From NCBI GenBank assembly GCA_964353855.1, contig CAYGWX010000005.1, positions 7,120-71,119 on the forward strand: a stretch of 64,000 nucleotides of DNA, read 5' to 3'. The position numbers and the translations under genes were made by a program. The stretch is from an uncultured bacterium (GTDB lineage: Bacteria > Edwardsbacteria > CAYGWX01). Positions 1 to 57,796 of the stretch are shown here, piece after piece. Each line of letters starts with the position of its first letter. Position 1 is the first letter of the stretch. A model generated the notes under the pieces. The model had not been told where the DNA came from. It saw only the letters and a list, made by a program, of their open reading frames with translations, and did not search any database.

Positions 1-687
1 CTACGCATCCTTCCGCTCCAGCTTGAAGCTCCCTTCCTGAAGCTCCAGAATCTTGGCCAGGGCGCTCTCGCCCTCCTCCTTCGCCCACTTGGCCTTGGCG
101 ATGGCCCCGTTCTTGAACTGGACCACCCCGAAGGTGCCCCGCCGGGCCAGGTCAATGCGCCCGGTCCAGCCCCCGGCCAGGAACATGTCCACCAGCCCCT
201 GGATGGACGTGGTCTGCAGGGCCCCCTCCATCACCGGCTCGTGCTCCCCTAAGAGCATGCGGATGGACTCCGCTTCCAGGAGGCAGTCCGAGACGGCCTT
301 CATCAGATGCTTGCGGACCTCGGCCTTGACCAGGTAATGCCGGCAGCCCAGCAGGAGCCCCCGGGCTCGGCTCGCGAGGTCCCCCTTGGAGGTGAGGAAC
401 AGAAACGGGATGTTCCGGGCTTCGGGGTGCGCCTTGACCTTTTCGCAGAAGGCGAATCCGTCCATCCTCGGCATCAAGATATCCGAGACGATGAGGTCCG
501 GAAATCCCTTCTCCCCCCAAGCCGGATCGGTGTACATCCTGATCAGGCCCGCCTGCCCGTCCTCGGCGCCAACGACCGTGTACCCCGCCTCGCCGAGCTC
601 CTTGAGCACCAGGTTGCGGGTGAACTCATCGTCCTCAACCACCAGGATGGTTGGGCCCTGGGGGTCGGAGGATTCTTCTTTGGTCAC
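1..687 (-). CDS. Response regulator: N-terminal CheY-like receiver (REC) plus C-terminal DUF4388 (PATAN-like) domain
   Basis: REC motifs present: VVEDDE, phospho-Asp context SDILMP, LFLTSKG, then K. The C-terminal ~100 aa match the DUF4388 pattern also seen at 32926-33585. Probable GTG start at 685-687. Confidence 0.7.
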   Translation of the reverse strand: MTKEESSDPQGPTILVVEDDEFTRNLVLKELGEAGYTVVGAEDGQAGLIRMYTDPAWGEKGFPDLIVSDILMPRMDGFAFCEKVKAHPEARNIPFLFLTSKGDLASRARGLLLGCRHYLVKAEVRKHLMKAVSDCLLEAESIRMLLGEHEPVMEGALQTTSIQGLVDMFLAGGWTGRIDLARRGTFGVVQFKNGAIAKAKWAKEEGESALAKILELQEGSFKLERKDA

Positions 688-777
688 GGGGAGACCATCA
701 TGACAGGGATCAGGGATCCATGATTTTAGATTTTGAGTTTTGGATTATCGATCCCTTATTCCAAAATCCAAAATCCT

Positions 778-1449
778 TCAGGTGCGCTCCGCGCAGAAGT
801 TCCCCTCGGTCAGGCAGAGGATCGCGGTCAGGGCCTCCTGGCTTTCGATCCGCCCCCAGGCCACCCGGGATATCCGCCCTTCCGAGAATTCCACGCGCCC
901 TTCCACCCCTCTCCGGGAAACGCTCAGGATTCCGCTCCTCTCTCCCACCAGGAACTGGTCCACCAGGCTCTGGATGGAAACCTGGGTGAGGTCGCCCTCG
1001 ACCTTTCCGGAGTGCTCGGCCAGGAGGACCCGGGTCTGGCCCGCGTCCACCAGGCACTGGCTGACGACCCGGAGCAGGTCCATCTTCCGGAACGGCTTGA
1101 CGAGATAGCGCTGGCAGCCCAGGAGAAGACCCTCGGCCCGGTCGGCCACCCCGGAGCGGACGGTGAGGAAGAGGAAGGGGATGGGCCGGGTGCGGGGGTC
1201 CCCCTTGACCCGCTTGCAGAATTTGAAGCCGTCCATCTTGGGCATCATCACATCCGAGAGAATGAGCCCCGGCAGCCCTCCGCTCCCCCACAGAGACGGG
1301 TCACCCATCCTGGCCAATGCCTCTTCTCCGTCGGGCGCGCCTACCGTCTTGAACCCGAACTCCTCGAGGGCCCGCTGGATGACCTGGCGGACGGAAACCT
1401 CGTCCTCGACGACCAGGATCGTGGACTCTTTGGCTCGGAATGCGTTCAC
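778..1449 (-). CDS. Response regulator REC-DUF4388, tandem paralog of the 1-687 gene
   Basis: Same architecture (ILVVEDEVSVR, SDVMMPKMDG, FLFLTVRSG) with a C-terminal DUF4388-like region. Overlaps the SPFH stop by 4 nt. Confidence 0.7.
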   Translation of the reverse strand: MNAFRAKESTILVVEDEVSVRQVIQRALEEFGFKTVGAPDGEEALARMGDPSLWGSGGLPGLILSDVMMPKMDGFKFCKRVKGDPRTRPIPFLFLTVRSGVADRAEGLLLGCQRYLVKPFRKMDLLRVVSQCLVDAGQTRVLLAEHSGKVEGDLTQVSIQSLVDQFLVGERSGILSVSRRGVEGRVEFSEGRISRVAWGRIESQEALTAILCLTEGNFCAERT

Positions 1450-2351
1450 TGCCCTCCCAGGATCAAGGGCAGCCCGTTCTTGGGGTTGCCAATGACCACG
1501 ATCTTGGAATTCGGGGAAGCGGCCAGTTTCTCCGTGGCCTCGATCCCTTTCCAGTCCAGAAGTCCCTGGGTGACTCCGGCGGACACGATGGCCTGGAAGT
1601 CCGCGATTCCCTTGGCCTCGATACGCTTGCGGTCGGCCTCCGACCTCTCCTTATCCAGGACGAACTTCATCCGCTCGGCCTGCTGCTCCGCGGCCATCTT
1701 CTCGTTGATCGCCTCGGACACGGCCTCGGGCAGGGTAATGCTCCGCAGCAGGACGCGCTCCAGGATGAAGCCCCGGGCGAGCAAGGAATCGGAGAGCTCC
1801 TTGTGGATCTCCGAGGCCACCAGCTCGCGGCTCGAGGTGTAAAGCGCCTTGGCCTCGTACTTCACGGTGGCCCCCCGGCTGGCTGAGCGGGTCTGGGGGA
1901 TGAGGAAGACGTTGTCGTAATCTTTTCCGATGCCCTTATAAACTGAGACCGCCCGGTCCGGGGAGACGTGGTAGAGCACGGAGACGTCCAGGTGGACGTT
2001 CAAGCCCTCCGATGAAGGAACATTCATGATCTCCTGGACCTGGGTCGTCCGGGTGGGGGTCATCACCAGTTTGGAGAACGGGATGACGAAGTTCAGCCCT
2101 GGATACTTGGGGCCGGAGACCCAGCCGTAGAAGTCCATCACGCCCACGTGCCCGGCCGGGACCGAGCGCACGAAGGTCCCGAGAAGCCCGATCACCAGGG
2201 CGGCGAGGAAAGCCCGCAGGCCCCAGCGACGGAATTTGACCGGATCCACAAAGCCCCGGACCACTGCGGATTGAGCCGAGGCACTCCTTGCCGCGCTCAG
2301 GACAGCCCAGGCCACGACCCCGAGCACGAGCCAGAACCAGAACCACTGCAT
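1446..2351 (-). CDS. SPFH/Band-7 (prohibitin/HflKC-like) membrane protein
   Basis: N-terminal TM helix followed by an SPFH core (GHVGVMDFYG, long PHB-domain-like stretch, coiled-coil EQQAERMKF). RBS AAGAGGAG lies 7 nt upstream of the ATG. Confidence 0.8.
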   Translation of the reverse strand: MQWFWFWLVLGVVAWAVLSAARSASAQSAVVRGFVDPVKFRRWGLRAFLAALVIGLLGTFVRSVPAGHVGVMDFYGWVSGPKYPGLNFVIPFSKLVMTPTRTTQVQEIMNVPSSEGLNVHLDVSVLYHVSPDRAVSVYKGIGKDYDNVFLIPQTRSASRGATVKYEAKALYTSSRELVASEIHKELSDSLLARGFILERVLLRSITLPEAVSEAINEKMAAEQQAERMKFVLDKERSEADRKRIEAKGIADFQAIVSAGVTQGLLDWKGIEATEKLAASPNSKIVVIGNPKNGLPLILGGQ

Positions 2352-8115: not shown

Positions 8116-11100
8116 ATGACTTCCGAGACCGAAACCATCGGACTCCCCAGTGAGGAAAAGGACCTGGCCTCCCTGGTCGGCAAGCGGGTCATCGAGGATA
8201 TGCTCGCGGCCATCATCGGTTATCTGCCGACCCGGGCTGCCCTGTTCGATCCCCAGGGCCGGGCTCTCGTCGAGCTCTCTCCCTGTGACTATTGCCAGGC
8301 CCTGAAAGAACGGGACGGTTCCCCGGTGTGCACCGGGTTTTACTCGTCCTTCGTACAGGATACCGCACGGACCCAGACCCCACTGGAGCGGTCTTGCCCC
8401 GGAGGCTGCCTGATGCACTCCGAGCCCGTTCTGTTCGGCGGCCACACCCTGGGCGTCCTCCTGCTCCGTCTCTCGGCTCCCCCCACGGATCCGGCCGCGC
8501 TTGCGCCCATCGCCGATGCGTTCTCTCTTCCCAGTGAGGTTTTGCTCCAAAAGGCAGGCCGGGTCCCGAACTTCCCCGAGCCTCTCGTGCTGGCTGCCCG
8601 GGACCATCTCGCTCAAACCGCACGCTTAATCCCCGAACTCTACCGGGCTGTGCTGGCCGAACGCAAGGCGCGGGAACTGGCCGCCATCCAGGCCATCGTC
8701 GCCACGGTCAGCCAGGCCAAGGACGCCAAGAGCCTGGCCAAGCGCGCCATGGAGACGATCCTGGAGCTCCTGCATCTGGAGATCGGGGGCCTCGCTTTCT
8801 ACGATTCCCAAAAGGGCGAATTGGTCACCGCCGCGATCATCGGACTTCCCCCGGAGTTGGCGGTCCATTATGCCCGGATTTCCCTCAAGACGGGTTCCGG
8901 CATCGCAGCCCAGGTCGCCAAGACCCACCAGCCTATTTTGGTGACGGATGTCTCCCAGCCTTCCTTCACGGTGGGCAATTCCCAGGAAGTGATCAAGCAG
9001 CTCCGCATCTCCTCCCTGGTGATCATGCCGCTCCTCGTAGCCGGGGAGTTCGTCGGCGGCATCGAGGTCGCGGCCCAGGGCGAGCGGCGCTTTACCCAGG
9101 AAGATCTCGACCTCATTTCCTCGGTCGCCACTCCCCTCGGCGTGGGCCTGAGGCGCCTCCGCCTGCAAGAGGACCTCCAGACCCGGAACCAGGAACTCCT
9201 GGCTTTGAACTCCATCACGGCCAGCATCAGCCGCTCCCTGAACCTCGAGGCCATCCTCCACGATTCCCTGGACAACATCATCGAGCTCTTCCAGGCCCAG
9301 GGCGGGACGCTTTATCTCGTGGACGAGGCCGGGGAACGCCTCATCCTCTCCGCCTCCCGCAATGCGCCGGACTGGTACCTGACGATGGCCGGGACCCTCC
9401 CCTTCGGCGCGGGCCTCGGCGGTAAGACCGCCAAGGCGGGCGGCCCACCCCGCGTCGGGAACATGGCCGACCTCTACCAGGACTATCCCGACATCCTCCG
9501 CCGCATGGAGGAGACCTACGGCAAAGGGGGGGAGACCCTCTATGTCGCGGCTCCCCTGCTCTCCCGGGACCGCGTCCTCGGGGTCATGCATCTCGTGTTT
9601 CGCGGGCCCCGGGAGTTCCGCCCCGAGGAGCTCGGCCTTCTCGGCTCCATCGGGAACCAGATCGGCCCGGCCATCGAGAACGCCCGGCTTTACGAATCCG
9701 AGCACCGCCGCCGGGCCCAGCTCGCCGGGCTCTCCGAGATCGTCCGGGCCCTTTCCGCGGAGCACGATCTCGGGACCCTGCTCAAGATGATCGTGACCCG
9801 CGCCGCCGAGGTCATGCACGCCCAGGCCACCAGCCTGATGATGTGGGACGAGGAGGAAGAGCATCTCCTCATCCGGGCCAGCCAGGGCCTCAGCCCGAGA
9901 TACGCTTCCGAATACCGCATTCCCCGGGAACGGACCCTGAATCTGGAGACCTCCCCCGACGGAAGGTTCGTTCCGATCATTCTCGCTGAACTCGCCGAAC
10001 AGCCCTTTGGAAAAATGGAGTTTAACAGGGAAGAAGGCCTCTGTTCGTTATTGACCATCCCCCTCGCCGGGTCCAGGACCCCAATCCATCGGGGAAGGAG
10101 GGCCGGGCTCTCCGGGCTCCTGAACATCTACAGCAAGGGCGAGCCCCGGGAGTTCCGTCCCGAAGAGGTGGAGCTGGCCGCCATCTTCGCCGACCAGGCC
10201 GCCGTGGCCCTGGACAATGCCCGCCTCCTCGCCGAGCGCGAGCGTCGCATCGCCCAGCTCGGGGTCCTGAACCAGATCAGCCAGGCGATCAGCGCCACCC
10301 TGCGCTTCGACCAGCTTCTGGATTTGATCTACTGGCAGGTCAGCCGAGTCATGGATACGGCCAACTTCTACATCGCCCTGGCCTATCCGGAGAAGAACCT
10401 CCTGACCTTCGAATATTTCGTCGAGGACCGCAAGCGTTCGGAGCGCCAGAGCCGGCAGATGGCCAACGGCCTGACCGAACACATCCTGCGCAGCCGGAAA
10501 CCCTTGCTCATCTCCGGAAACATCGCCGCAGCCTGCCAGGACCTCGGGGTCGAGCTGATGGGTCGCCTGTCTCAATCTTATCTCGGGGTTCCGATGACGA
10601 TCGGCGAGACCATCATCGGGGTCATTGCGGTGCAGAGCTATACCCGTGAAGATGCTTACGGCACGGACGACCAGGAGCTCCTGGCCACCATCGCCCACCA
10701 GGCCGCCATCGCCGTGGAGAACGCCCGGCTCTACGAGTCCACGAGCCAGCGCATGAAGGAGATCGGCATCCTCTATCGCATCGCCCAGAGCCTCTCCACC
10801 TCCCTGGACCTGGACAGCCTGCTGGCGAGCTTCCTCGAGGTCCTGAACCAGGAGCTCGGATACCGCTGGGCCATCCTGCTCCTGGTGGACAGGGAGAAGA
10901 ATGAGCTGTTCATCCGGGCCTGCCCTCCGGATTATCCCCAGGAGGTCCAGGAGAAGGTCCGGTTCAAAATCGGGGCCGAGGGGATCTCGGGGCACGTGGC
11001 CCTGACCGGCGAGCCCGTGGTCCTTTCCGACGTCACCCGGGATCCGCGCTATGCCCCCGGACTGATCCAGGCGCGCTCCGAGATCGCGGTTCCGCTGAAG

Positions 11101-12846
11101 ATCGGGGGGGAGGTCATCGGAGTCCTGGACATCGAGGACCCGGCTCCCGGAGCCTTCGGGGACCGCGACCTCCGCCTGCTCACCTCCCTCGCCGCCCAGG
11201 TGGCCATCGCCATCGAGAACGCCCGGCTCTACCAGGCCACCTCGGAGCGCGCCAAGGAGCTGGCCATCCTCTACGATATCGGGCGCAACCTTACCCTGAA
11301 CCTGGACCTGGATAGTCTCCTGGACCAGATTTTAGGCGCCATGCAGGAATCCTTCGGCTACCTGAACTGCGCCATCCTGCTCCTGGACAGGGAGAAGAAC
11401 GAGCTCTTCATCAAGGCGGCCCGGGGATACACCGAGGAGGTCATCCGGAACCGCCGCATCCGGATCGGGGAGGAGGGCATCACCGGCTGGGTCGCGGCCC
11501 GCGGGGAGCCCCTGAACGTCCCCGATGTGAGTCGGAACGGGCGCTACGTCGAGGGGGTGGTCTCCAGCCGCTCCGAGCTGGCCGTGCCCCTGCGCATCGG
11601 CCAGGAGGTGATCGGGGTCCTGGACGTGGAGAGCCAGGAGGTCGCCGCCTTCCAGGAGAAGGACCTGCGCATGCTCACCTCCTTCGCCGCCCAGGCCGCC
11701 ATCGCCATCGAGAACGCCCGGCTCTACGCCAACCTCGAGGAGCGGGTCAAGGAGCTGGACATCCTCTCCCTGATCACCGGTCGGATCAACGCCGGTATCT
11801 CCATCTCCGAGACCCTGGAGACCGTCGTGGACGAGATCCGCAAGGTCATCCCCTACGATACCGCCATCCTCTACTTCTCCGATTCCGGGGGGACGACGCT
11901 TCACCCCCAGATCGTGCGGTTGGCCTCGTCGGAATTCCCCCAGGATTACATCGACCGGCTCCGCACCTTTCCCGTGCCTTTCGGCAAGGGCCTGGTCGGG
12001 TGGTCGGCCCAGGAGAAGGAGCCCTTGAACTGCCCCAACGTCCTCCAGGACCCCCGGCGCCTTGACCTTCCCGAGACGCCCGCTCTTCTCTCGGTCCTGG
12101 CCGTTCCCTTCGTCGTGGAGCAGAAGACCATCGGGGCCCTGGCCCTGTCCCAGCTCGGAGAGCGGCGGTTCGCTTCCTCCGATCTCCGGCTCCTTCGGGT
12201 CCTGGCCGACGATTGCGCCATCGCCATCCACAAGGCCCGGCTCTTCGACGAGACCCAGCGTCTGGCCATCCTGGACGGCCTCACCGGCCTGGCCAACAGC
12301 CGGCACTTCTACAACGAGCTCAAGAAGGAGATGGAGCGCGCCGAGCGCTACAGCAAGCCTGTGTCCCTCATCCTCTTCGACATCGATGACTTCAAGAAGG
12401 TCAACGATTCCCTGGGCCACCAGGTCGGGGACAACCTGCTCCGCGAGATGGCTCAGATCCTGCCCACCCTCACGCGCAAGAGCGACCTCCTGGCCCGCTA
12501 CGGCGGGGAGGAGTTCGCCGTGTTGCTGCCCGAGACCAGCCGGGAGCACGCCCTGGCCACAGCCGAGCGCATCCGGGCCAAGGTGGAGGGCCATGTCTAC
12601 CCCGGCGTGGACCTTCCCCGGGGCCGGATGACGATCAGCCTGGGAGTCGCCACCTATCCCTACGATGCGGCCACCCACCGGGATTTCGTCCGCGCCGCGG
12701 ACATCGCCCTGTACGCCGCCAAGCGGGCCGGAAAGAACCGGGTCTTCTCCTATGAGACCTTGAGCCTCAAGCAGTCCCCCGCCCCCGGCGGGGCCGGGGG
12801 GGAGCCTGACACCGGCTACGAGTTCCGCGGCTCCCCGCCTGAATGA
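8116..12846 (+). CDS. Giant multidomain diguanylate cyclase: N-terminal Cys-containing sensor (PocR-like), about 7 GAF domains, C-terminal GGDEF
   Basis: GAF domains are delimited by recurring AIENARLYE linker helices (six ENARLY-type plus HKARLF). The C-terminus carries RYGGEEF (GGDEF A-site) with an upstream DxLT region, so the active-site motif is intact. Confidence 0.8.
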   Translation: MTSETETIGLPSEEKDLASLVGKRVIEDMLAAIIGYLPTRAALFDPQGRALVELSPCDYCQALKERDGSPVCTGFYSSFVQDTARTQTPLERSCPGGCLMHSEPVLFGGHTLGVLLLRLSAPPTDPAALAPIADAFSLPSEVLLQKAGRVPNFPEPLVLAARDHLAQTARLIPELYRAVLAERKARELAAIQAIVATVSQAKDAKSLAKRAMETILELLHLEIGGLAFYDSQKGELVTAAIIGLPPELAVHYARISLKTGSGIAAQVAKTHQPILVTDVSQPSFTVGNSQEVIKQLRISSLVIMPLLVAGEFVGGIEVAAQGERRFTQEDLDLISSVATPLGVGLRRLRLQEDLQTRNQELLALNSITASISRSLNLEAILHDSLDNIIELFQAQGGTLYLVDEAGERLILSASRNAPDWYLTMAGTLPFGAGLGGKTAKAGGPPRVGNMADLYQDYPDILRRMEETYGKGGETLYVAAPLLSRDRVLGVMHLVFRGPREFRPEELGLLGSIGNQIGPAIENARLYESEHRRRAQLAGLSEIVRALSAEHDLGTLLKMIVTRAAEVMHAQATSLMMWDEEEEHLLIRASQGLSPRYASEYRIPRERTLNLETSPDGRFVPIILAELAEQPFGKMEFNREEGLCSLLTIPLAGSRTPIHRGRRAGLSGLLNIYSKGEPREFRPEEVELAAIFADQAAVALDNARLLAERERRIAQLGVLNQISQAISATLRFDQLLDLIYWQVSRVMDTANFYIALAYPEKNLLTFEYFVEDRKRSERQSRQMANGLTEHILRSRKPLLISGNIAAACQDLGVELMGRLSQSYLGVPMTIGETIIGVIAVQSYTREDAYGTDDQELLATIAHQAAIAVENARLYESTSQRMKEIGILYRIAQSLSTSLDLDSLLASFLEVLNQELGYRWAILLLVDREKNELFIRACPPDYPQEVQEKVRFKIGAEGISGHVALTGEPVVLSDVTRDPRYAPGLIQARSEIAVPLKIGGEVIGVLDIEDPAPGAFGDRDLRLLTSLAAQVAIAIENARLYQATSERAKELAILYDIGRNLTLNLDLDSLLDQILGAMQESFGYLNCAILLLDREKNELFIKAARGYTEEVIRNRRIRIGEEGITGWVAARGEPLNVPDVSRNGRYVEGVVSSRSELAVPLRIGQEVIGVLDVESQEVAAFQEKDLRMLTSFAAQAAIAIENARLYANLEERVKELDILSLITGRINAGISISETLETVVDEIRKVIPYDTAILYFSDSGGTTLHPQIVRLASSEFPQDYIDRLRTFPVPFGKGLVGWSAQEKEPLNCPNVLQDPRRLDLPETPALLSVLAVPFVVEQKTIGALALSQLGERRFASSDLRLLRVLADDCAIAIHKARLFDETQRLAILDGLTGLANSRHFYNELKKEMERAERYSKPVSLILFDIDDFKKVNDSLGHQVGDNLLREMAQILPTLTRKSDLLARYGGEEFAVLLPETSREHALATAERIRAKVEGHVYPGVDLPRGRMTISLGVATYPYDAATHRDFVRAADIALYAAKRAGKNRVFSYETLSLKQSPAPGGAGGEPDTGYEFRGSPPE

Positions 12847-13161: not shown

Positions 13162-14304
13162 ATGCCCGAAAACGACTTCACCCACGAATACGGCGAAGCG
13201 CCCCTGGTTTCGCTCGAGGCCCTGCCCATCGACCAGCTCCTCGAGGAGCTGGTCCTGCGCAACGCCTCGGACATCCACCTCCGGGTGGGCGAGCCCCCGG
13301 CCTACCGGGTGTTCGGCGAGCTCACCCGCTCCGAGCTGACCCCCCTCTCCGCCGACGAGCTCAAGAAGCTCCTCTACGCCGTGATGAACGAGGAGCGGCG
13401 CGAGCGCTTCGAGCGCACCTGCGAGCTGGACATGTCCTACGCCATCCAGGGCGTGGCCCGCTTCCGCATCTCGGTCTTCCGCCAGCGCGGGGAGATCGGC
13501 GCCGTGCTCCGGGTCATCCCGCTCAAGCTCAAGTCCATCGACGACTGGGGCCTGCCCCAGATCATCAAGCAGTTCGCCACCCTGCCCAGAGGGCTCATCC
13601 TGGTCACCGGGCCCACCGGCTCCGGCAAATCCACCACCCTCTCCGCCATGGTGGACTACATCAACGAGTCCCGCCGGAGCCACATCATCACCATCGAGGA
13701 CCCCCTGGAGTACGTGCACCACGACAAGCAGTCCGTGGTGGAGCAGCGCGAGATCGGGGTGGATACCCGTTCCTTCGCCTCGGCCCTGGCCCACGTCATG
13801 CGCCAGAATCCGGACGTCATCATGGTCGGCGAGCTCCGCGACCATGAGACCATGTCCCTGGCCATGTCCGCGGCCGAGACCGGGCATCTCGTCCTCTCCA
13901 CCCTGCACACCATGGACGCCTCCCAGACCGTGGGCCGGATCATCGACGCCTTCTCCCCTGAGGAGCAGACCCAGGTGAGGCTCCAGCTCTCCACCGTGCT
14001 CCAGGGCGTGGTCTCCCAGACCCTGCTCCGTCGGACCGACGGCCCGGGCCTGGTGGCCGCCTTCGAGATCATGACCTGTACCGGGGCCATCAAGAGCCTC
14101 ATCCGCGAGGGCAAGACCCCGCAGATATATTCCCTGATCCAGACCGGCAGCCGTTACGGCATGCAGACCCTGGACCAGTCTTTGAAGGAGCTTCTGTTCA
14201 AGGGCATCGTCTCGGCCGAGGATGCCCTGGCCCGCTCGGCCAACCCCCAGGAGTTCGAGGGCGCCATCAATGCCCTCCAGCCCCCCCGGGGCCCGGGGGG
14301 CTGA
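13162..14304 (+). CDS. pilT: Type IV pilus retraction ATPase PilT family
   Basis: Walker A GPTGSGKST, Asp box, Walker B DVIMVGELRD, His box, and the PilT signature AIKSLIREGK. Confidence 0.85.
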   Translation: MPENDFTHEYGEAPLVSLEALPIDQLLEELVLRNASDIHLRVGEPPAYRVFGELTRSELTPLSADELKKLLYAVMNEERRERFERTCELDMSYAIQGVARFRISVFRQRGEIGAVLRVIPLKLKSIDDWGLPQIIKQFATLPRGLILVTGPTGSGKSTTLSAMVDYINESRRSHIITIEDPLEYVHHDKQSVVEQREIGVDTRSFASALAHVMRQNPDVIMVGELRDHETMSLAMSAAETGHLVLSTLHTMDASQTVGRIIDAFSPEEQTQVRLQLSTVLQGVVSQTLLRRTDGPGLVAAFEIMTCTGAIKSLIREGKTPQIYSLIQTGSRYGMQTLDQSLKELLFKGIVSAEDALARSANPQEFEGAINALQPPRGPGG

Positions 14305-14719: not shown

Positions 14720-14802
14720 GGGCAGCTAACCAACGAACCGATGTTTCCGTCCACCCGTCTAAGCGTTCAACCGTCTAACTTTTGCAGGGTGGGTTGATCC
14801 CC

Positions 14803-15873
14803 ATGCAGATGCTGGACCTGCTCTACGCCACCTTCACCAAGAACGCCTCCGACCTCGTCCTGAAGGCCGGCAGCCCGCCCCTGGTCCGCATCCAGGGCGA
14901 GCTCATCCCCCTGGCCTATCCGCCCCTCACCGCGGACGAGACCCGCGCCCTGGTCCTCTCCATCCTCACCCGGGTCCAGGTGGAGAAGCTGGAGCGGGAC
15001 CTCGAGCTGGACATCGCCACCAGCCTGTCCAACCTCGCCCGCTTCCGGGTGAACGTCTTCCACCAGCAGGGAACCCTGGCCATGGTCGCCCGGGTGGTGA
15101 GGAGCAAGATCCCCAGCCTGGATGACCTCGGCCTCCCGCTCGCGGCCAAGGCCCTGGCCTTGAAATCCAGGGGCCTGGTCCTGGTGACCGGCCCGGCCGG
15201 GTGCGGCAAGTCCACGACCCTGGCGGCGCTCTTAGAGTTCCGCAACCAGACCCTGCCCTGCCACATCATGACCATCGAGGACCCCATCGAGTTCGTCTAC
15301 CTGGGCAAGAAGGCCCTGGTCAACCAGCGCGAGATCGGGGTGGACACCCTCTCCTACGCCGAGGCCCTGCGCAGTGTCCTGCGCCAGGACCCGGACGCCA
15401 TCATGGTCGGGGAGCTCCGCGACCGCGAGACCCTGGGCATGGCCCTGACCGCGGCCGAGACCGGGCATCTGGTCCTCTCCACGATGCACACCTCCTCGGC
15501 CGTGGAGACGATCGACCGCATGGTCGGCATCTTCCCGGCCCACCAGGAATCCCAGGTCCGCCTGCAGATCTCGGTGAACCTGGGCGGCATCATCTGTCAG
15601 CAGCTCCTCGCCCGGGCGGACGGCAAGGGCCGGCTCCCGGCCTATGAGATCCTGCTGGTCAACGCCGCCGTGCGTTCCCTGATCCGCGAGGGCAAGACGG
15701 CCCAGCTCCCCTCCGCCATCCAGACCGGGGCCAGGCTGGGCATGTCCACGATGAACGCCTACCTCGCCGAGCTCGTCAAGCGGGGCGTGGTGACCCTCGA
15801 GGAGGCCATGAAGAAGACCGAGACCCCGGAGGAGCTGAAGGGGATGGCCGGAAGCAAGCCTTCGGCTTCCTAA
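14803..15873 (+). CDS. Second PilT/PilU-family ATPase paralog
   Basis: Walker A GPAGCGKST, DAIMVGELRD, and AVRSLIREGK. Start moved to the ATG at 14803 (MQMLDLLY); the track begins at a TTG at 14782. Confidence 0.8.
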   Translation: MQMLDLLYATFTKNASDLVLKAGSPPLVRIQGELIPLAYPPLTADETRALVLSILTRVQVEKLERDLELDIATSLSNLARFRVNVFHQQGTLAMVARVVRSKIPSLDDLGLPLAAKALALKSRGLVLVTGPAGCGKSTTLAALLEFRNQTLPCHIMTIEDPIEFVYLGKKALVNQREIGVDTLSYAEALRSVLRQDPDAIMVGELRDRETLGMALTAAETGHLVLSTMHTSSAVETIDRMVGIFPAHQESQVRLQISVNLGGIICQQLLARADGKGRLPAYEILLVNAAVRSLIREGKTAQLPSAIQTGARLGMSTMNAYLAELVKRGVVTLEEAMKKTETPEELKGMAGSKPSAS

Positions 15874-23820: not shown

Positions 23821-23892
23821 GTCGTTTCGGTCAAAAGGCCGCCCCGATCAAGTCTCGGGACGGCCTTTCATCGTTTGGCCTTTTTTAAGAGG

Positions 23893-25398: not shown

Positions 25399-25414
25399 CT
25401 CCTGTTCCTCCTTT

Positions 25415-26191: not shown

Positions 26192-26196
26192 CGCTC

Positions 26197-29953: not shown

Positions 29954-30949
29954 TTAGAATTTTACGGACAGGGAGAACTTCTGATTGTACTTCTGGAGTT
30001 CGCCCCCGGGCTCCATGCCGTAGTCGAAGCTGAAGCGCTTGACCAGGACCCCGCCCCCGAAGGTCGGGCCCTTGATGTGCCCGGCCTCGTCGGTCACGTA
30101 GCCTGTGCGCAGGGCCAGGAGGTCGGAGTAGACGAACTCCGTGCCCAGGTGGGTCACGACCTCGTAGAGCTGGGTTCGCATCGGGTCATTCAGGTTCAGG
30201 AGCATCTTCGTCGCGTCCGCGGACAGGACCCATTTGCTCACCCGGTTGTCCATCAGGCGGTAAGCCGTGCCCACCCGCAGGTTTCGGGATAGAGGATCGG
30301 CGTTCTCGGCCTCGAGGTAGACCAGCTTCGGGCCGATGTTCTGCACGGTGACGCCCCAGCTCATGCGCTTGAACGGCCCCTTGTAGAGCATCCCGAAGTC
30401 GAAGGCCCAGGTCGTGGCCACCCCAGTCCCGCGGCTCCCGTCAATAGTCCCGGAGTAGAGATGGCTGTAGATGAGCTTGAAGTTTCCTCCCAGCCCCAGT
30501 TTCTTTCCCACCTTGGTGCCGTAGGAGAGGTGGGGGGACATCTCGTAGCTCGAGAACTCTCCCAGGACATTTCCTTCAGGGTCTGTCCGCAGGCTCCGGC
30601 CCTCGGAGAGAAAGATGAGGCTCCCGCCGACCGTCCCCCATCCCTTCACCGGCTGGACATAGGCTGCGAATTCGTAGTACAGGTCTCCGACGTCGCGCCA
30701 GATGTTGTTGAGCCAGGGGGAGTGCATCAGGGCCAACTCCCGGCGGTTAAGGAAGGCCAGACCTCCGGGATTGTAGTAAATCGCCGTGGCATCGTCCGCA
30801 ATGGCCACGAAGGCGCTGCCCATGCCCGCGGCCCGGGCCCCGGGTCGTATCATCAGGAAGATCGCTCCCCCCTCCGAGATCGCCCAAGCCCCGGAGGCCA
30901 GGGCTATAAAGAGGAGGGCCGTCAACCCAACCGTTAACCGTCTTACCAT
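29954..30949 (-). CDS. PorQ/PorV-like (UPF0164/FadL-like) outer-membrane beta-barrel
   Basis: Signal peptide, then IRPGARAAGMGSAFVAIADDATAIYYNPGGL matching the family motif AR..GMG.A..A..DD..A...NPAGL. Ends in F. 331 aa is the PorQ size class. Confidence 0.6.
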   Translation of the reverse strand: MVRRLTVGLTALLFIALASGAWAISEGGAIFLMIRPGARAAGMGSAFVAIADDATAIYYNPGGLAFLNRRELALMHSPWLNNIWRDVGDLYYEFAAYVQPVKGWGTVGGSLIFLSEGRSLRTDPEGNVLGEFSSYEMSPHLSYGTKVGKKLGLGGNFKLIYSHLYSGTIDGSRGTGVATTWAFDFGMLYKGPFKRMSWGVTVQNIGPKLVYLEAENADPLSRNLRVGTAYRLMDNRVSKWVLSADATKMLLNLNDPMRTQLYEVVTHLGTEFVYSDLLALRTGYVTDEAGHIKGPTFGGGVLVKRFSFDYGMEPGGELQKYNQKFSLSVKF

Positions 30950-30979: not shown

Positions 30980-32899
30980 CTATCGAACGAGGAGGACTTT
31001 TTTTACATCGTGACCGAACCCGCTCTTCAAGAGACATAAGTAGGTACCACTAGCCACCGCCTTCCCCGATTCATTCTTTCCATCCCACAGGGGAATCAGG
31101 TTGCCGCGGTCGTAACGCCCTGGAAGCAGGTTGGTTCCCACCTCGAGTTCTCTCACTAAATCCCCGGTGGAGGCGTAGATATAAATCCTGACATCCCCGC
31201 CTTTGGTCAGATAAAAGGGCATGCGGAGCGGACCCTTGGCCGGCTCATAGGGATTGGGGAAGGGCTCGAAGAGAGCCTCTTGCTCCACCCCCGTCTTGGG
31301 AGGATAGGGATACCCCTGAGGAGTGTAATTCACCGCCCTCACCCCGTCCGGAATTCCCCAGCCTATTTTGTTGTCCGGTGCGCTGGCCTGGTTCGCGGTC
31401 ATCATCAGGGCCTCTCGGACTTGTTTCGGTCCCCAGGAGCGGGAGGGGTTGAGCGAATCTGTGTGCGCCTCCAAGAGCAGAGCCGCCAGCCCTGCAACGA
31501 TTGCTGTTGCGGTGGATGTCCCTGTGCCGCCGACTAAATGGTCGTATTTGCCTGTGGTGTCGTTAAAAGAATTACTGGCCATTATGACTAAATACGCTAA
31601 AGCTGAAACTTCTGGCTTCATGCGTCCGTCGGCGGTAGGCCCCACACAGGACTTGGACCACCAGCTTCCGTCCAGGGAACATCCCCCCACCGCCACGATG
31701 TTAAAGGCATCCGAAGGAGCCTTCAACCACGTCTGCCCGTCGTGGACGTTCCCGATGGCGTTCACGACCAAGATCCCGAAGCTGTCCGCGGCAATAGAGG
31801 CCATCTTGCTCGTCACCGCAGTCCGTCCATCCATGCTGTCCCGGGTATATTGCTGCCCCGTGTCCCCAGGGAAAATAGCATAGCCCAAGGAGCTCGAAAC
31901 GATATCCGCGCCGTTGGCTTCGGCCCACCTCATCGCCTCCACCCAGCGATGCTCTTCGATTTTCGTGTCGAATTCCCCCACGGACTTGTTGTGCTCGGTT
32001 TTGGCTAAGAGGAAATCCGCCCCGAACGCCGAGCCGATAAGGCGTCCGTATGAATATCCACCTAAGATGGAAAGCATCGCGGTCCCATGCTGAGTCTGTA
32101 TCCGGGTATACGGAGGGTTTTCACCCCATGTCGTGTCTTGGTTCTCATCGAAAGACGTGTGGTTGTCGTTATATAGGAAGTCCCACTCCTTAATTATCCT
32201 CACCCGCTTCAAGGATTCGTGGCCGGGGTATCGGTTGCCTAGTGAATCAACCCAGTCATGGTCGAACCCCGTGTCGAAAATCGCCAGCCTCACTCCGGCA
32301 CCGGTATAACCCATCTGGTGAAGGCCGGTAACGTTCACCTGTCGGAGCTGGAAGTCTGAAAGGCCGTAATCCAGGCCCGCAGGGCCTGGTATCCCTTGCC
32401 GTTCCGCCTGTTTCACGATAGGTTCGGCCTTGCGGATATAGACCGCTTCAGGGCGCAGTTCCCGAACGAAAGGAAGGCCCTCGATCTCTAACAGCGCCCT
32501 ACCGGAAGCTTCGACACATACTCCGTTCAACCATTCGGTCTGAGCCAGAATCCGGGCACCCCTGCCCTCTAGTTCCCTCATATATCGAGCCTCCAGGGGC
32601 AGGTCCAGAAAGGAGACAACGTTTTCCGTTCTCCGAACCTTGAGCCGCCGCTTCAGGGCATGCGGGTCAAGCCTCTTCTTAAAGGATTCTTTTTCCCCCT
32701 CAAAGGTTGCTTCGTCCGTGAAGCCCTTGTCCGTGAAAAAGACCCAGGCCCTCACCGGGGCATCGGGATCAGCAAGAAGGTGCGCTTTCCAGGCCGGGGA
32801 AGACTTCGGATTGGAAGGCGGGGTCACATAATCAGCCCCTGCCGCCCAGGAGACTACGAAAAGGACCAGGGCTCCCGCGATCAGCCCGATCCTGCTCAT
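30980..32899 (-). CDS. Subtilisin-like S8 serine peptidase with T9SS C-terminal sorting domain
   Basis: D-H-S triad contexts FDTGFD, HGTAMLSILGG and GTSTATAIVAG. C-terminus ...GTYLCLLKSGFGHDVKKVLLVR after a beta-sandwich-like tail. Signal peptide. Confidence 0.8.
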   Translation of the reverse strand: MSRIGLIAGALVLFVVSWAAGADYVTPPSNPKSSPAWKAHLLADPDAPVRAWVFFTDKGFTDEATFEGEKESFKKRLDPHALKRRLKVRRTENVVSFLDLPLEARYMRELEGRGARILAQTEWLNGVCVEASGRALLEIEGLPFVRELRPEAVYIRKAEPIVKQAERQGIPGPAGLDYGLSDFQLRQVNVTGLHQMGYTGAGVRLAIFDTGFDHDWVDSLGNRYPGHESLKRVRIIKEWDFLYNDNHTSFDENQDTTWGENPPYTRIQTQHGTAMLSILGGYSYGRLIGSAFGADFLLAKTEHNKSVGEFDTKIEEHRWVEAMRWAEANGADIVSSSLGYAIFPGDTGQQYTRDSMDGRTAVTSKMASIAADSFGILVVNAIGNVHDGQTWLKAPSDAFNIVAVGGCSLDGSWWSKSCVGPTADGRMKPEVSALAYLVIMASNSFNDTTGKYDHLVGGTGTSTATAIVAGLAALLLEAHTDSLNPSRSWGPKQVREALMMTANQASAPDNKIGWGIPDGVRAVNYTPQGYPYPPKTGVEQEALFEPFPNPYEPAKGPLRMPFYLTKGGDVRIYIYASTGDLVRELEVGTNLLPGRYDRGNLIPLWDGKNESGKAVASGTYLCLLKSGFGHDVKKVLLVR

Positions 32900-32925: not shown

Positions 32926-33585
32926 CTATTTCTTCCCTTTACCGCCGCCGAAAAGCTTGAACCCGCCCGCCTTGGCCTTATCGTCGCTCGCCGCAGCAGC
33001 CGCCGGGCTGGGGGGAACATAAGCTGGAATCGGTTCGGCCTTGGGCTTCTCCGTAACCTTGAGAAGACCCAGGGCCACGAGCTCATAAACCACCTTGCAG
33101 ACCTCGAACTCGGTCATCGCGCACTCCTCGCATATCTGCCGGATCGTCCGGGTGCCCTCCACCAGGGCCAGGACCTTCCACTCGTGGGGCTCTAACTTGA
33201 TGTTCTCCAGCTCCGGGCTGGGCTCCGGGACGATGGTGACGAGGAGGTCGATGTGCGGGACGAGTTTCTTGATCTCGGCCCACTCGTCCGTTTGCCGGGC
33301 CACCTCCAGGACGAGCTGCTGGATCGAGGACTCCACGCTTTTCAGGTTAGCTTTGAGATCGGGCTCGAACACGAACCGTCCGGAGTGCCACTGCAGGACC
33401 CGGCAGATCGCTTTGTCCCCTACCAGGGTCGAGGAGGTGGCGTGCACTGCGATCCCCTCTTGGAAGTAGATGGTCCCGTCGCCGTCGTCCGTGTTGACTT
33501 TCAGGGCGCCGTTTTTCTTGCCCATATGGACGAGCTGGATCACATCCGTGAGCACAAAATCCTGAAGATTTCCTTCTAAGGCCAT
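32926..33585 (-). CDS. Stand-alone DUF4388 (PATAN-like) domain protein
   Basis: N-terminus LEGNLQDFVLTDVIQLVHMGKKNGALKV...GRFVFE aligns with the C-terminal halves of the two REC-DUF4388 regulators. 26 nt upstream of the S8 peptidase gene. Confidence 0.6.
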   Translation of the reverse strand: MALEGNLQDFVLTDVIQLVHMGKKNGALKVNTDDGDGTIYFQEGIAVHATSSTLVGDKAICRVLQWHSGRFVFEPDLKANLKSVESSIQQLVLEVARQTDEWAEIKKLVPHIDLLVTIVPEPSPELENIKLEPHEWKVLALVEGTRTIRQICEECAMTEFEVCKVVYELVALGLLKVTEKPKAEPIPAYVPPSPAAAAASDDKAKAGGFKLFGGGKGKK

Positions 33586-33625: not shown

Positions 33626-34588
33626 CTATGGAGTGGCCGCATAGCGGCCCATACTGGCGAATTTATCGCTGCGCTGGGCGATAAGTGACTCCGGCGGGAT
33701 CTCCTCCAGATCCTCGAAGGCGGAAAGGATCTCGCGCTTCAGGGTCTCGGCCATCGCGTCCGGGTTCCGGTGCGCACCGCCCAAGGGCTCCGGGATTAGC
33801 TTGTCCACGATGCCCAACTCCAGACAATCTGCTGAGGACAGCTTGAAGGCCTCGGCGGCCTCGGGAGCCCGTCCGGCGTCACGCCAGAGGATGGAGGCGC
33901 ACCCCTCGGGCGTGATGACCGAGTAATACGCATGTTCCAGCATCAACACCCGGTCCCCGACCGCAATCGCGATCGCCCCGCCCGAGCCTCCCTCCCCGAG
34001 GATCACCACCACGATGGGCACCGGAAGCCGGGCCATGATGAACTGGCTCCTCGCAATGGCCTCGGCAATCCCCCGTTCCTCGGCCTTGTCACCGGGAAAG
34101 GCTCCCTGGGTGTCCACCAGAGAGAGGATGGGAAAGTGGAACTTGGCCGCCAACTGAAACAGCCGGTAAGCTTTGCGGTAACCCTCGGGGTGAGCCTGGC
34201 CGAAGTTCCGCCTAAGTTTCTCCTTCGTATCCCGGCCCTTTTGCTGGCCAACGATCATCATTCGCTTCCCCTGGATTAGGGCCAAACCGCCGACGATCGC
34301 CTGGTCGTCACGGAACAGGCGGTCGCCGTGCAACTCGAACCATTCCTCAGCCATTCGTCCGATGTAGTCGAGGGAGTAAGGCCGCTGCGGATGCCGGGCC
34401 AGAAGGACGCGCTGCCAACGGGTCATATGGCTGAAGATATCCTGTTTGAGATGGACCGCTTTCGCTTCCAGCCGTCGGATTTCGTCCCGGGCATCCAGGT
34501 TCCCGGCTGCGGCCGCGGCCTGGAGCTCCCGGATCTTCTGTTCCACTTCGGCGATCGGCTTTTCGAACTCGAGATAGTGGTCTGACAT
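33626..34588 (-). CDS. accA: Acetyl-CoA carboxylase carboxyltransferase alpha subunit
   Basis: Full-length AccA signature (RLFQLAAKFHFPILSLVDTQGAFPG, GEGGSGGA). Confidence 0.9.
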   Translation of the reverse strand: MSDHYLEFEKPIAEVEQKIRELQAAAAAGNLDARDEIRRLEAKAVHLKQDIFSHMTRWQRVLLARHPQRPYSLDYIGRMAEEWFELHGDRLFRDDQAIVGGLALIQGKRMMIVGQQKGRDTKEKLRRNFGQAHPEGYRKAYRLFQLAAKFHFPILSLVDTQGAFPGDKAEERGIAEAIARSQFIMARLPVPIVVVILGEGGSGGAIAIAVGDRVLMLEHAYYSVITPEGCASILWRDAGRAPEAAEAFKLSSADCLELGIVDKLIPEPLGGAHRNPDAMAETLKREILSAFEDLEEIPPESLIAQRSDKFASMGRYAATP

Positions 34589-41936: not shown

Positions 41937-42392
41937 TTACTTATGTTTCTCTAACAGCCTGCGCAGTTCCTCCATGAACTCCTTGCTGTCCTTGAAGGAG
42001 CGGTAGACCGAGGCGAAGCGGACGTAGGCCACGCCATCCAAGTCCTTCAGGGCTTCCATGACCAGTTCCCCCACCTCCTGGCTCGTGACCTCGCTTTTGC
42101 CCGTGGCGGTCAGCTCCCCTTCCACGCTCTCCACGATCTTCTCCAGGGCGTTGATTCCGATCGGCCGCTTCTCGCAGGCCTTCCGCATGCCCCGCAGCAG
42201 CTTCTCCCGGTCAAAGGGCTCCCGCCTTCCATCCTTCTTGACCACCACCAGGGGTGGCTCCACGTACTCGTAGGTCGTAAAGCGCCGCTTGCAGGAGAGG
42301 CATTCCCGCCGGCGGCGGATGGCGTCTCCGTCCCGGGACAGCCGGGAATCGATCACCCGGTCCTTCTGGAATCCGCAAACCGGACAGCGCAT
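41937..42392 (-). CDS. nrdR: Transcriptional repressor NrdR
   Basis: MRCPVCG...C zinc ribbon plus ATP-cone. The track's 44-aa N-terminal extension was trimmed. The ATG overlaps the upstream stop by 1 nt. Confidence 0.85.
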
Positions 42393-42871
42393 TACTTGGC
42401 CTTCGGCTTGAACAGCTCCACCTTGAGCTTCGCCTCCTTGAGTATCTGTCGGGAGAGCTCGTCGGGGTACCCTTTCCGTACCACGATCCTCTTGATCCCT
42501 GCGTTGATGACCATCTTCGTGCACAGGACGCAGGGGTGATGCGTGGAATAAAGCGTCGCGCCCTGGATGTTCACGCCCGAGGTCGCCGCCTGAATGATGG
42601 CGTTCTGCTCGGCATGGATGGCCCGCGAGACCTCATGCCTTTCTCCGGAGGGAACGCCCAGGCGATCCCGTAGGCAGCCCCCCAATTCATCGCAGTGCAG
42701 CAGCCCGGCCGGCGGGCCGTTGTATCCCGTGGCCAGGATCCTCTTGTCCTTGACCAGGAGGGCCCCCACCGACCGGCGCAGACAGGTGGAACGCCGGGAC
42801 ACGAGGTCGGTGATGCCCATGAAATACTCGTCCCAGGAGGGTCTACCGTCTGTTTTCTTGCTTCGCTTCAA
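42392..42871 (-). CDS. dCMP/CMP deaminase (ComEB-like), zinc-binding
   Basis: HAEQNAI and [15 protein letters not shown] motifs. Confidence 0.85.
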
Positions 42872-42877
42872 AAAGGC

Positions 42878-43288
42878 CTATCTCGGAGGCAGGCCTGCCC
42901 CCTCCTGGAAGGAGAGCTCCCCTTTGACCTCGGTCAGGCAGTCCGAGAGCACGTTCATCTGGTGCAGGGCGATGGTCTCCTCCAGGGCCTGGCGGGCGAT
43001 CAGCCCCATATCCACCAAGATGTCCCCCAGGCGTGTGGCCCCGGCGGACTCTCGCTGCTTGCTCAGGGCCTGCTTGAGCTGCTCGCGGTCGATCTTCCCG
43101 GCCTCGGTCAGGATGTCCCCGATGAGCTTCTTCCTCTCGTCCGAGGAAAAGCTTACCACCTCCCCGTGGGCGAAGGCCACGTGCTCGCATACCTCCGCGC
43201 TCTCGATGGTCAGGGTCCCTGTCCAGCGCTCGGCCTTGGCTTTGGAAACCACTTCGTTGAAGGTCATCAGTCCCAACTTCTTTGCCAT
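42878..43288 (-). CDS. DUF4388-like domain followed by two tandem T2SSE_N/MshEN-like motifs
   Basis: WTGTLTIESAEVCEHVAFAHGEVVSF (DUF4388 pattern), then KKLIGDILTEAGKIDREQLKQALSKQ and TRLGDILVDMGLIARQALEETIALHQ, which follow the RLGxxLxxxGxxxxxxLxxxLxxQ motif. Start trimmed to MAKKLG after the glyA stop. Confidence 0.45.
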   Translation of the reverse strand: MAKKLGLMTFNEVVSKAKAERWTGTLTIESAEVCEHVAFAHGEVVSFSSDERKKLIGDILTEAGKIDREQLKQALSKQRESAGATRLGDILVDMGLIARQALEETIALHQMNVLSDCLTEVKGELSFQEGAGLPPR

Positions 43289-43304: not shown

Positions 43305-44558
43305 TTATAGGCGGTTGGCGTAGAGAGGAAAATGTCTGCAGAGCGACCCGACATCGCTCTTCACCTCGGTCGCAACCTTCTCATCTCCGGGATGAGAAAG
43401 CACCTTGTCCAACAAGCCGGCGATGGCGACCATCTCGGGTTCCTTCATGCCCCGGGTGGTCAGGGCCGGGGTGCCCAAGCGGATCCCGCTCGTCACCGTG
43501 GGCTTCTGGGTTTCAAAGGGCACGGTGTTCTTGTTCACCGTGATCCCGGATGCCCCCAGGACGTCCTCGGCCTGCTTTCCGGTGATCCCCTTGGTCGTGA
43601 GGTTCACGAGCAGGAGGTGGGTGTCAGTTCCCCCCGAGACCAGGTGGTAGCCCCGCCGTTTCATCTCCTCGGCCAGGGCCCGGGCGTTCTTCACCACCTG
43701 GGACTGGTAGGTCTTGAACTCCGGCTCCAGGGCCTCCTTCAGGGCCACGGCCTTGGCCGCGATGCAGTGCATCAGGGGTCCGCCCTGCATCCCGGGCATC
43801 ACGGTCCGGTCCACATCCTTGGCGTACTTCGCCTTGCACATAATCATCCCGCCACGCGGCCCCCGCAGGGTCTTGTGCGTGGTCGTGGTCACGAGGTCGG
43901 CGTAGGGGACCGGGGAGGGGTGCAGGCCGGTGGCGACCAAGCCGGCGATGTGGGCGATGTCCACCATGAGCGTGGCCCCCACCTCGTCGGCGATCTCCCG
44001 GAACTTGGCGAAGTCCAGGGTCCGGGGATAGGCGCTGGCCCCGGCCAGGATCATCTTGGGTTTGTGGACCTGGGCCATTTTGCGGAGCTCGTCGTAGTCG
44101 ATGGTCTCGGTCCGCTGGGACACCCCGTAGGAGATGCAGTTGTAGAACTGGCCGGAGAAGTTCACCTTGTACCCGTGGGTCAGGTGCCCGCCGTGGGAGA
44201 GGTCCAGGCCGAGGAAGGTGTCCCCCAACTTCAGGAGGACCATGTAGGCCGCCATGTTGGCCTGGGCCCCGGCGTGGGGCTGGACATTGGCGTGGTCGCA
44301 CCCGAAGAGCTGTTTGGCCCGCTCCCGGGCAAGGTTTTCGGCCACGTCTACGAACTCACACCCTCCGTAGTAGCGCTTTCCGGGAAGCCCCTCGGCGTAC
44401 TTGTTGGTCATCACCGAGCCCAGGGCCTCCAGGACCGCGTCGGAGACGAAGTTCTCCGAGGCGATGAGCTCCAGGCCGTCGGCTTGGCGCCGGGTCTCAT
44501 TTAGGATGGCCTCGTAAATGTCCGGATCGTACTGTCTCAGGGGCAATGAATTCATCAT
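43305..44558 (-). CDS. glyA: Serine hydroxymethyltransferase
   Basis: Full-length SHMT with the [14 protein letters not shown]-lysine motif. Confidence 0.95.
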
Positions 44559-57721: not shown

Positions 57722-57796
57722 TGGTGGGCCCTCTGGGATTCGAACCCAGGACCGACGGATTATGAGTCCGCTGCTCTACCCTTGAGCTAAGGGCCC
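57722..57796 (-). tRNA. tRNA-Met (anticodon CAT); elongator type, possibly tRNA-Ile2 if lysidinylated
   Basis: The reverse complement reads GGGCCCTTAGCTCAAGGGTAGAGCAGCGGACTCATAATCCGTCGGTCCTGGGTTCGAATCCCAGAGGGCCCACCA. It has a 7-bp acceptor stem, a T-loop GGTTCGAATCC, an anticodon loop CTCATAA and an encoded CCA. The G1-C72 pair argues against an initiator tRNA. Confidence 0.85.

Follow-up and report, generated by a model that had tools for sequence, protein, structure and literature searches.

Results

Four genes with a PATAN domain

The DNA analyzed here, called the window, is a stretch of 64,000 nucleotides (nt) of contig CAYGWX010000005.1 (positions 7,120 to 71,119 of the forward strand; GenBank assembly GCA_964353855.1) from an uncultured bacterium of the Edwardsbacteria lineage. 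It opens with two adjacent genes, RR1 and RR2, each of which encodes a response regulator made of a receiver domain (REC) followed by DUF4388 (PF14332). DUF4388 is the PATAN (PatA N-terminal) domain, so named by Makarova et al. (2006), as cited in later work. Two further genes, D3 (32926..33585) and D4 (42878..43288), carry the same domain, and all four genes lie on the reverse strand. Their products represent three architectures, namely, REC-PATAN in RR1 and RR2, PATAN with a C-terminal extension in D3, and PATAN with an inserted MshEN-like alpha-clip in D4.

PATAN modules were searched for with Pfam on about 50 open reading frames (ORFs) and with two custom PATAN hidden Markov models (HMMs; --max, E values up to 20) in all six frames, covering every fragment of at least 40 amino acids (aa). 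These searches gave four modules in four genes, each above the Pfam gathering score of 25. A fifth or sixth module was sought in the same Pfam and six-frame HMM searches, and none was found beyond the four. An earlier interpretation of this DNA, made from its letters alone and referred to here as the sequence-only reading, had counted five DUF4388 modules and had the domain recurring in four genes besides the pair; the number falls to four modules in four genes. Its assignment of the domain held, as Pfam confirmed DUF4388 in all four genes.

The response regulators RR1 and RR2

RR1 (1..687, reverse strand) encodes a protein of 228 aa, and its stop codon occupies nt 1-3. The receiver spans aa 14-132 (nt 292-648) and is followed by a short PATAN domain at aa 154-226 (nt 10-228). 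RR2 (778..1449, reverse strand) starts with GTG and encodes 223 aa, with the receiver at aa 11-129 (nt 1063-1419), a long linker helix at aa 122-145, and the PATAN domain at aa 149-222 (nt 781-1005). In the Pfam scan, the Response_reg model scored 66.1 bits in RR1 and 73.9 bits in RR2, and DUF4388 scored 27.3 and 32.9 bits, respectively. The two genes had been described as REC followed by DUF4388, the reverse of the order in PatA, and this is how the Pfam domains are arranged.

Since both DUF4388 scores are near the gathering score, we made independent checks. An HMM restricted to the last ~78 residues of 39 RR2 relatives matched D3 (E = 2.8e-14) and D4 (E = 2e-6), and hhalign, given the regulator alignment and the D4 family, returned a probability of 90% for the first 44 PATAN columns. 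The structure predicted for RR2 by AlphaFold2 (predicted local distance difference test score, 89; predicted template modeling score, 0.85) places a compact beta-alpha-beta-beta-beta-alpha-beta module C-terminal to the receiver. In this model, an extended alpha5/linker helix runs from the receiver into a short, intact PATAN fold, whose order of strands and helices is identical to that in the AlphaFold2 model of D4.

The two regulators are 48% identical over 213 aa in an ungapped alignment (E = 6e-71) and are therefore tandem paralogs, as had been proposed. In a neighbor-joining tree, the RR1 clade was sister to the RR2 clade, and a third clade (P0007-P0022) fell outside both; the duplication is therefore older than the split of the relatives that share it. 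The receiver came first in all of the aligned relatives (39/39), and the PatA-type order, with PATAN at the N terminus, was not encountered among them. Homologs with an N-terminal REC are spread over many metagenomes. When a genome collection was scanned with the regulator alignment, most of the 80 hits returned were generic response regulators, because the search patterns derived from the receiver domain. The PATAN module was detectable only in L010 and L018, and Pfam confirmed it only in the latter.

The set of residues expected of a CheY-like receiver (acidic pocket, phospho-acceptor Asp, Thr/Tyr switch, and Lys) is complete in RR1 and RR2, whose receivers are canonical and appear to be functional. 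In RR2 these are D16, D66, T96, Y115, and K118, all conserved across relatives; in the alignment, Y115 is invariant and D16, D66, and K118 are invariant or nearly so. RR1 and its ortholog P0020 keep every phospho-acceptor residue, but the Lys equivalent to K109 of CheY precedes Ala or Ser in them, not the Pro that follows it after beta5 in 90% or more of the aligned sequences. Both are also altered at the start of alpha5. With K-A or K-S in place of K-P, the alpha4-beta5-alpha5 face of RR1 and P0020 has therefore diverged.

The spacer between RR2 and RR1 (688-777) measures 90 nt and is AT-rich within a region of 63% GC. Short repeats in direct orientation (GGATTTTGGATTTTGG; AAAACTCAAAATCTAAAATC) and the palindromic sequence GGATC..GATCC occur within it, and it may serve as an internal promoter or operator.

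Gene neighborhood of the regulator pair

Directly upstream of RR2 lies a gene for an SPFH/Band-7 membrane protein (1446..2351, reverse strand; Pfam Band_7, 98 bits). Read directly from the sequence, the letters GTGA contain both the stop codon of this gene (TGA) and the start codon of RR2 (GTG). The order SPFH-RR2-RR1 is kept in the related contigs L002, L003, and L004, down to 74% identity, and the ortholog of RR1 comes after that of RR2 in L002 and L004. An exact look-up of RR1 gave no record, and the context downstream of RR1, beyond the window, was taken from the latter two relatives (98% and 74% identity, respectively). Both have a divergent PocR-GAF-GGDEF gene and, further along, TldD/PmbA, GATase, PALP, SPFH, RR2, and RR1; past the point where our window ends, there follow genes for an M16 peptidase and an MscS-cNMP channel, among others. 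L004 has a third REC-PATAN gene (19818-20498), 9 kb past the tandem pair, which suggests that the lineage carries many genes of this type.

Other surroundings are seen in more distant homologs. One that is 45% identical is a single gene behind a Kelch-repeat protein with a FlgD_ig tail, and another, 32% identical, lies 48 nt upstream of a gene for a PAS-HisKA-HATPase kinase. In a Planctomycetota metagenome-assembled genome (MAG), a Pfam-confirmed REC-DUF4388 gene adjoins one for an Hpt-GGDEF-REC-REC protein. No histidine kinase gene was found in the window or adjoining the pair in L002 and L004. The REC-PATAN architecture is widespread and a bona fide two-component output, and the local context of this pair is lineage-specific.

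The arrangement with the SPFH gene raises the question of whether RR2 and RR1 act with the putatively co-transcribed SPFH/Band-7 protein and not on pili. The scaffold might place the regulators, or the regulators might control scaffold-linked proteolysis or membrane microdomains. The overlap of the SPFH stop with the RR2 start, the order shared with three related contigs, and the peptidase genes on both flanks (TldD/PmbA upstream and M16 downstream) all speak for such a link. However, the association is gone in the homologs of 45% and 32% identity, and the relatives that keep the order are collinear over the whole region, so that the order may be merely inherited. We also know of no precedent for a PATAN-SPFH interaction in the literature consulted. 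We consider this explanation unlikely.

The sequence-only reading had placed the DUF4388 modules next to pilT genes and a giant diguanylate cyclase. For the pair, that adjacency did not survive measurement: the diguanylate cyclase gene is ~6.7 kb and the nearer pilT ~11.7 kb away, with TldD/PmbA, PALP, and SPFH between. The cyclase gene (8116..12846, forward strand) adjoins no PATAN gene, and its position is conserved in three related contigs (L001, L002, and L004). The 1576-aa product combines an N-terminal PocR sensor domain (33 bits in Pfam), seven GAF domains (GAF_2, 401 bits in 7 stretches), and a C-terminal GGDEF domain (162 bits). The two genes for retraction ATPases of the PilT/PilU family (13162-14304 and 14782-15873, forward strand) scored 468 and 440 bits against TIGR01420 pilT_fam (cut-off, 319).

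D3 and its possible type IX secretion neighbors

D3 (32926..33585, reverse strand) encodes 219 aa, with PATAN at aa 4-103, a C-terminal region, and a Lys/Ala-rich tail. DUF4388 matched over the full length of the model with 86.3 bits. In the C-terminal half, Pfam gave only MarR_2 at E = 0.074, a nonsignificant, faint winged-helix signal. D3 as a DNA-binding regulator was rejected, this match being its sole basis. The D3 family is narrow, with 6 clusters, and the 90% cluster of D3 itself has 32 members.

Directly upstream lies accA, for the acetyl-CoA carboxylase carboxyltransferase alpha subunit (33626..34588, reverse strand; Pfam ACCA, 456 bits), and 26 nt downstream lies a gene for a secreted S8 subtilase (30980..32899, reverse strand; Peptidase_S8, 110 bits). 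As had been read from the sequence, D3 is a DUF4388 gene 26 nt upstream of an S8 protease gene. That protease had also been assigned to the type IX secretion system (T9SS), and its C-terminal domain scores below the Pfam cut-off. Its C terminus scored 18.4 bits against FlgD_ig (cut-off, 27) and matched the PorZ C-terminal domain at E = 0.006, and the Pfam scan of the protease gave no Por_Secre_tail match at E ≤ 0.01. From these matches, the protease may carry a T9SS-type C-terminal domain. The next gene (29954..30949, reverse strand) had been called PorQ-like. Its product belongs to the PorV/PorQ family of outer membrane proteins (NF033709 PorV_fam, 219 bits; cut-off, 90), but the narrower identity as PorQ was lost, since it is below both the PorV and PorQ equivalog cut-offs of NCBIfam.

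Conservation of this region was followed in related loci. In L095, L096, and L097, accA and D3 remain side by side, and an S8 ortholog lies downstream of D3 in L095, L096, and L085-L088. The order PorV-like, DUF2279, accA, D3, S8 is retained even where D3 is 60% and S8 38% identical, and the D3-S8 gap is 15 nt there. In a 92% relative, the gap is 195 nt, compared to 26 nt here, and that locus is collinear with the window across all 20.6 kb retrieved. The best sigma-70-like promoter match of the region (TTGACT-17-TATAAT, 11/12; 35922-35894, reverse strand) lies upstream of the first PorV-like gene; except for this match, promoter and terminator scans gave counts not above the shuffled expectation. 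Its position would fit a single long transcript that includes accA, D3, and the S8 protease gene.

Proteins with T9SS-type tails are frequent here, with at least four in the window. In addition to the S8 protease, for which such a tail is uncertain, the window encodes an M6-like FG-GAP protein (Por_Secre_tail, 28 bits), the product of 23893-25455 (FlgD_ig, 35.5 bits), and an LVIVD protein (Por_Secre_tail, 22.6 bits). Adjacency to one of them is therefore weak evidence, expected by chance. A run of large secreted proteins is encoded at 19569-29481 (reverse strand) and is collinear in L096 and L097; its members include a protein of 1163 aa that matched nothing in Pfam, one of 520 aa ending in a FlgD_ig tail, another that is DUF5683-like, and the M6-like FG-GAP protein (1094 aa) with its Por_Secre_tail.

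These neighbors could mean that the PATAN proteins form a control layer of type IX secretion, in which D3 governs the downstream S8 and PorV-family genes and the two regulators feed into the T9SS. Such a role would fit the accA-D3-S8 order, which persists to a D3 identity of 60% and has a PorV/PorQ-family gene after S8 wherever the sequence reaches, as well as the D3-S8 gaps of 15-26 nt in two lineages. It would also fit a strong promoter match found only upstream of the first PorV-like gene, the Kelch protein with a FlgD_ig tail that precedes the 45% regulator homolog, and the faint MarR_2 match of D3. Yet that match is nonsignificant, the C-terminal domain of the S8 protease is under the Pfam cut-offs, and the gap widens to 195 nt in the close relative. 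With T9SS tails as common as they are in the window, the adjacency needs no functional cause, and RR1, RR2, and D4 are without T9SS neighbors. To our knowledge, the regulators known for the T9SS are of the PorX/PorY type, not PATAN proteins, which also weighs against this role. We judge it very unlikely. The sequence-only reading had tied DUF4388 to the T9SS through its neighbors, and that inference is not supported in view of the abundance of cargo in the window, the collinearity of the whole region in relatives, and the longer gap in the 92% relative.

D4, a PATAN domain with an MshEN-type insertion

D4 (42878..43288, reverse strand) encodes 136 aa, a length that agrees with public gene calls. 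DUF4388 scored 46.7 bits in Pfam (cut-off, 25), and the alpha-clip is inserted at aa 52-110 (nt 42959-43135). This segment matched the MshEN domains of Thermus thermophilus PilF (E = 7e-15), PilB, and Vibrio cholerae MshE (E = 5e-5) in the PDB, and the protein scored 52.9 bits (cut-off, 38) against NCBIfam NF053729, "c-di-GMP_motif". The MshEN-like motifs proposed for 42878-43288 are thus borne out by both searches. In the AlphaFold2 model, four helices take the place of the second PATAN helix, and the insertion has the four-helix-bundle fold of MshEN_N.

MshEN is defined by two tandem 24-residue motifs, RLGxx(L/V/I)(L/V/I)xxG(L/V/I)(L/V/I)xxxxLxxxLxxQ, separated by a short spacer. Both are recognizable in D4, with differences. 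Motif 1 begins with Leu and not Arg, motif 2 ends with His, the Gln coming one residue later, and T61 and K65 stand at hydrophobic motif positions. The spacer has 7 residues, compared to 5 in MshEN and in distant D4 orthologs. Q32 and R38 of MshE have kept equivalents in Q78 and R86. In a survey of PATAN-plus-clip proteins (150 cluster representatives), the motifs mostly had R or K first and Q last, and several shared the L and HQ of D4.

The PATAN-plus-clip unit is found in other proteins as well. It is N-terminal in many proteins of 370-1400 aa, and three metagenomic proteins of about 1450-1490 aa (P0220, P0225, and P0232) have several D4-profile domains in tandem. P0220 has four such matches, spanning PATAN plus clip.

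The D4 gene is embedded among genes of thymidylate and one-carbon metabolism. It lies 16 nt downstream of glyA, for serine hydroxymethyltransferase (SHMT; 43305..44558, reverse strand; Pfam SHMT, 571 bits), and 6 nt upstream of a dCMP deaminase-type gene (42392..42871, reverse strand) whose orthologs carry dCMP_cyt_deam_1 in Pfam. The dCMP deaminase gene is followed by nrdR (41937-42392, reverse strand; Zn_ribbon_NrdR and ATP-cone). Standalone D4 orthologs of ~136-141 aa form one discrete group, with 12 clusters at 90% and essentially one at 50%. We examined 21 of their loci by phmmer adjacency, comprising 18 metagenome loci (48-99% identity) and L090, L092, and L096; L090 is a Candidatus Edwardsbacteria MAG, and the D4 ortholog in such a MAG is 63% identical. 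On every side with sequence, D4 lay between glyA and the dCMP deaminase gene (21/21 loci), with overlaps or gaps of a few nt. SHMT identity went down to 62% across these loci, and the outer flanks varied by clade, with nrdR-rnf (rnfC), as in the window, or HPPK-deoxynucleoside kinase. None of the larger proteins with N-terminal PATAN plus clip (at most 38% identity) had glyA or dCMP deaminase neighbors. This conserved operon is the only element of the window that looks new, and no description of the association was found in the literature searched.

D4 might then be a small nucleotide-sensing regulator of deoxynucleotide and one-carbon metabolism that works with SHMT and dCMP deaminase and is not a motility adaptor. 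The placement of all 21 standalone orthologs argues for this, the more so as the outer flanks differ by clade, SHMT has diverged to 62% identity, and the larger PATAN-plus-clip proteins never have these neighbors. The invariant departure of the ligand-contact residues from MshEN points the same way. On the other hand, a small gene can sit in a constitutive operon for its expression alone, and no literature precedent was found for PATAN or MshEN regulating metabolic enzymes. We hold such a role to be quite unlikely. An improbable but more specific version is that D4 represents an undescribed orthologous group, obligate in the glyA-D4-dCMP deaminase operon, that acts as a nucleotide-messenger sensor for thymidylate, one-carbon, and deoxynucleotide supply. 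Its ligand could be cyclic di-GMP (c-di-GMP) or, given the invariant R-to-L and Q-to-H changes, another molecule. If true, D4 would tie MshEN-type signaling to DNA-precursor metabolism, a link not reported before. If functional, the strict placement of D4 between glyA and the dCMP deaminase gene would join sensing of the cyclic-dinucleotide type to the synthesis of DNA precursors.

Comparison with known PATAN and MshEN proteins

Much of what is seen in the window has counterparts in the literature. Han et al. reported more than 8,000 DUF4388 proteins, mostly consisting of the domain alone or with a single REC, and found several of them in many genomes, with more than a dozen in Myxococcus xanthus. 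They noted that MglA/MglB homologs are often near DUF4388 genes, that the alpha-clip resembles repeats at the N terminus of ATPases of type II secretion systems and type IV pili, and that GspE_N annotations occur on some DUF4388 proteins. In Synechocystis, PATAN binds PilB1 and the N terminus of PilC and suffices to switch phototaxis, and only phosphorylated PixG binds the motor. The statement in the sequence-only reading that a DUF4388-based system is not functionally characterised is thus half true: multiplicity, REC association, the alpha-clip, and PilB1/PilC binding have all been published.

RR1 and RR2 share both domains, PATAN (PF14332) and a CheY-like receiver, with the cyanobacterial proteins PatA, PixG, PixE, and LsiR, in which PATAN is the output; PixG, of the PatA type, requires its phospho-acceptor Asp for function. 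They differ in having an N-terminal receiver and a short PATAN domain, of about 75 aa, without an alpha-clip. Nor do they belong to a chemotaxis-type operon; they are orphan tandem paralogs in a noncyanobacterial, T9SS-bearing, uncultured lineage. RR1 and RR2 are not PatA-type regulators, as the defining domain order is reversed. Like the multicopy PATAN genes of other environmental bacteria, those of the window encode the domain either by itself or in fusion with REC or further domains. Elsewhere, such genes have been tied circumstantially to type IV pili and MglA/MglB polarity modules. None of the four studied here has mglA, mglB, or a Roadblock gene nearby, and their close homologs are all metagenomic.

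The insertion of D4 has two recognizable, though altered, 24-residue motifs and shares the four-helix bundle with MshEN as found in V. cholerae MshE, the GSPII domains of T. thermophilus PilF, and the C terminus of NfrB. Besides the changed residues and the longer spacer, it differs in position: in D4 the bundle is inserted inside the PATAN fold, whereas MshEN heads an ATPase.

Interpretation of the PATAN genes

We favor, with a little more than even confidence, the reading that the window holds four members of the PATAN family in three known architectures, that RR1 and RR2 are orphan regulators with a PATAN output, and that the four genes do not make up a single network. On this reading, both regulators are orphan members of the two-component type whose output domain is PATAN. 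The four genes show no demonstrable single network, and their co-occurrence reflects a PATAN-rich lineage. The sequence-only reading had joined them into one DUF4388-centered network for motility or secretion, an idea that is not supported, as the genes occupy three loci that are unrelated and separated by housekeeping genes.

By the precedent of PixG, phosphorylation of the RR1 and RR2 receivers by an unlinked kinase would free or reorient PATAN for partner binding. The likeliest class of partner would be the motor of type IV pili (PilB/PilC/PilT) or the cell-polarity machinery. The two PilT-family ATPase genes of the window place pilus retraction machinery in the same genome. The diverged RR1, with K-A for K-P, might serve as a competing or antagonistic phosphoryl acceptor with respect to RR2, as PixH does with respect to PixG. 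In D4, the binding of a cyclic dinucleotide or similar ligand is probably coupled to an interaction with a protein.

Several observations weigh against this reading. In the window, no kinase, MglA/MglB, pilB, or pilC gene adjoins any of the four PATAN genes, and in L002 and L004 no pilus gene but only the SPFH gene is a conserved neighbor of the regulator pair. REC and PATAN stand in the opposite order to that of the characterized PatA-type regulators, and the mechanism is transferred from them by analogy only. In D4, two of the four key polar or stacking residues of MshEN are changed (R9 to L55 and Q61 to H109), both changes being invariant in the family, and these two positions put D4 outside the relaxed motif of Wang et al. 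Binding of c-di-GMP by D4 is therefore uncertain, and its binding of a ligand in general is plausible but uncertain on the basis of the sequence. Finally, no solved structure was found to match the PATAN part.

The earlier finding itself adds little, since PATAN, its fusion to REC, the alpha-clip insertion, and multiplicity are all documented, and there is no specific tie to the T9SS. What the regulators contribute is an extension of the catalogue of REC-first PATAN proteins to an uncultured, T9SS-gene-bearing lineage related to Candidatus Edwardsbacteria. D4 is a clean, minimal PATAN-plus-MshEN protein and as such is suited to first work on a PATAN structure and its ligand.

Other features of the window

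Rfam and tRNA scans of the window gave only one hit, a tRNA-Met gene at 57722-57796, and the Rfam scan found no c-di-GMP riboswitch. Upstream of dnaG-rpoD, an ORF at 62900-63991 (reverse strand) has weak matches to the C-terminal domain of the RNA polymerase alpha subunit, sigma-70 region 4, and TrmB/MarR helix-turn-helix domains; a version of 373 aa is called in L102.

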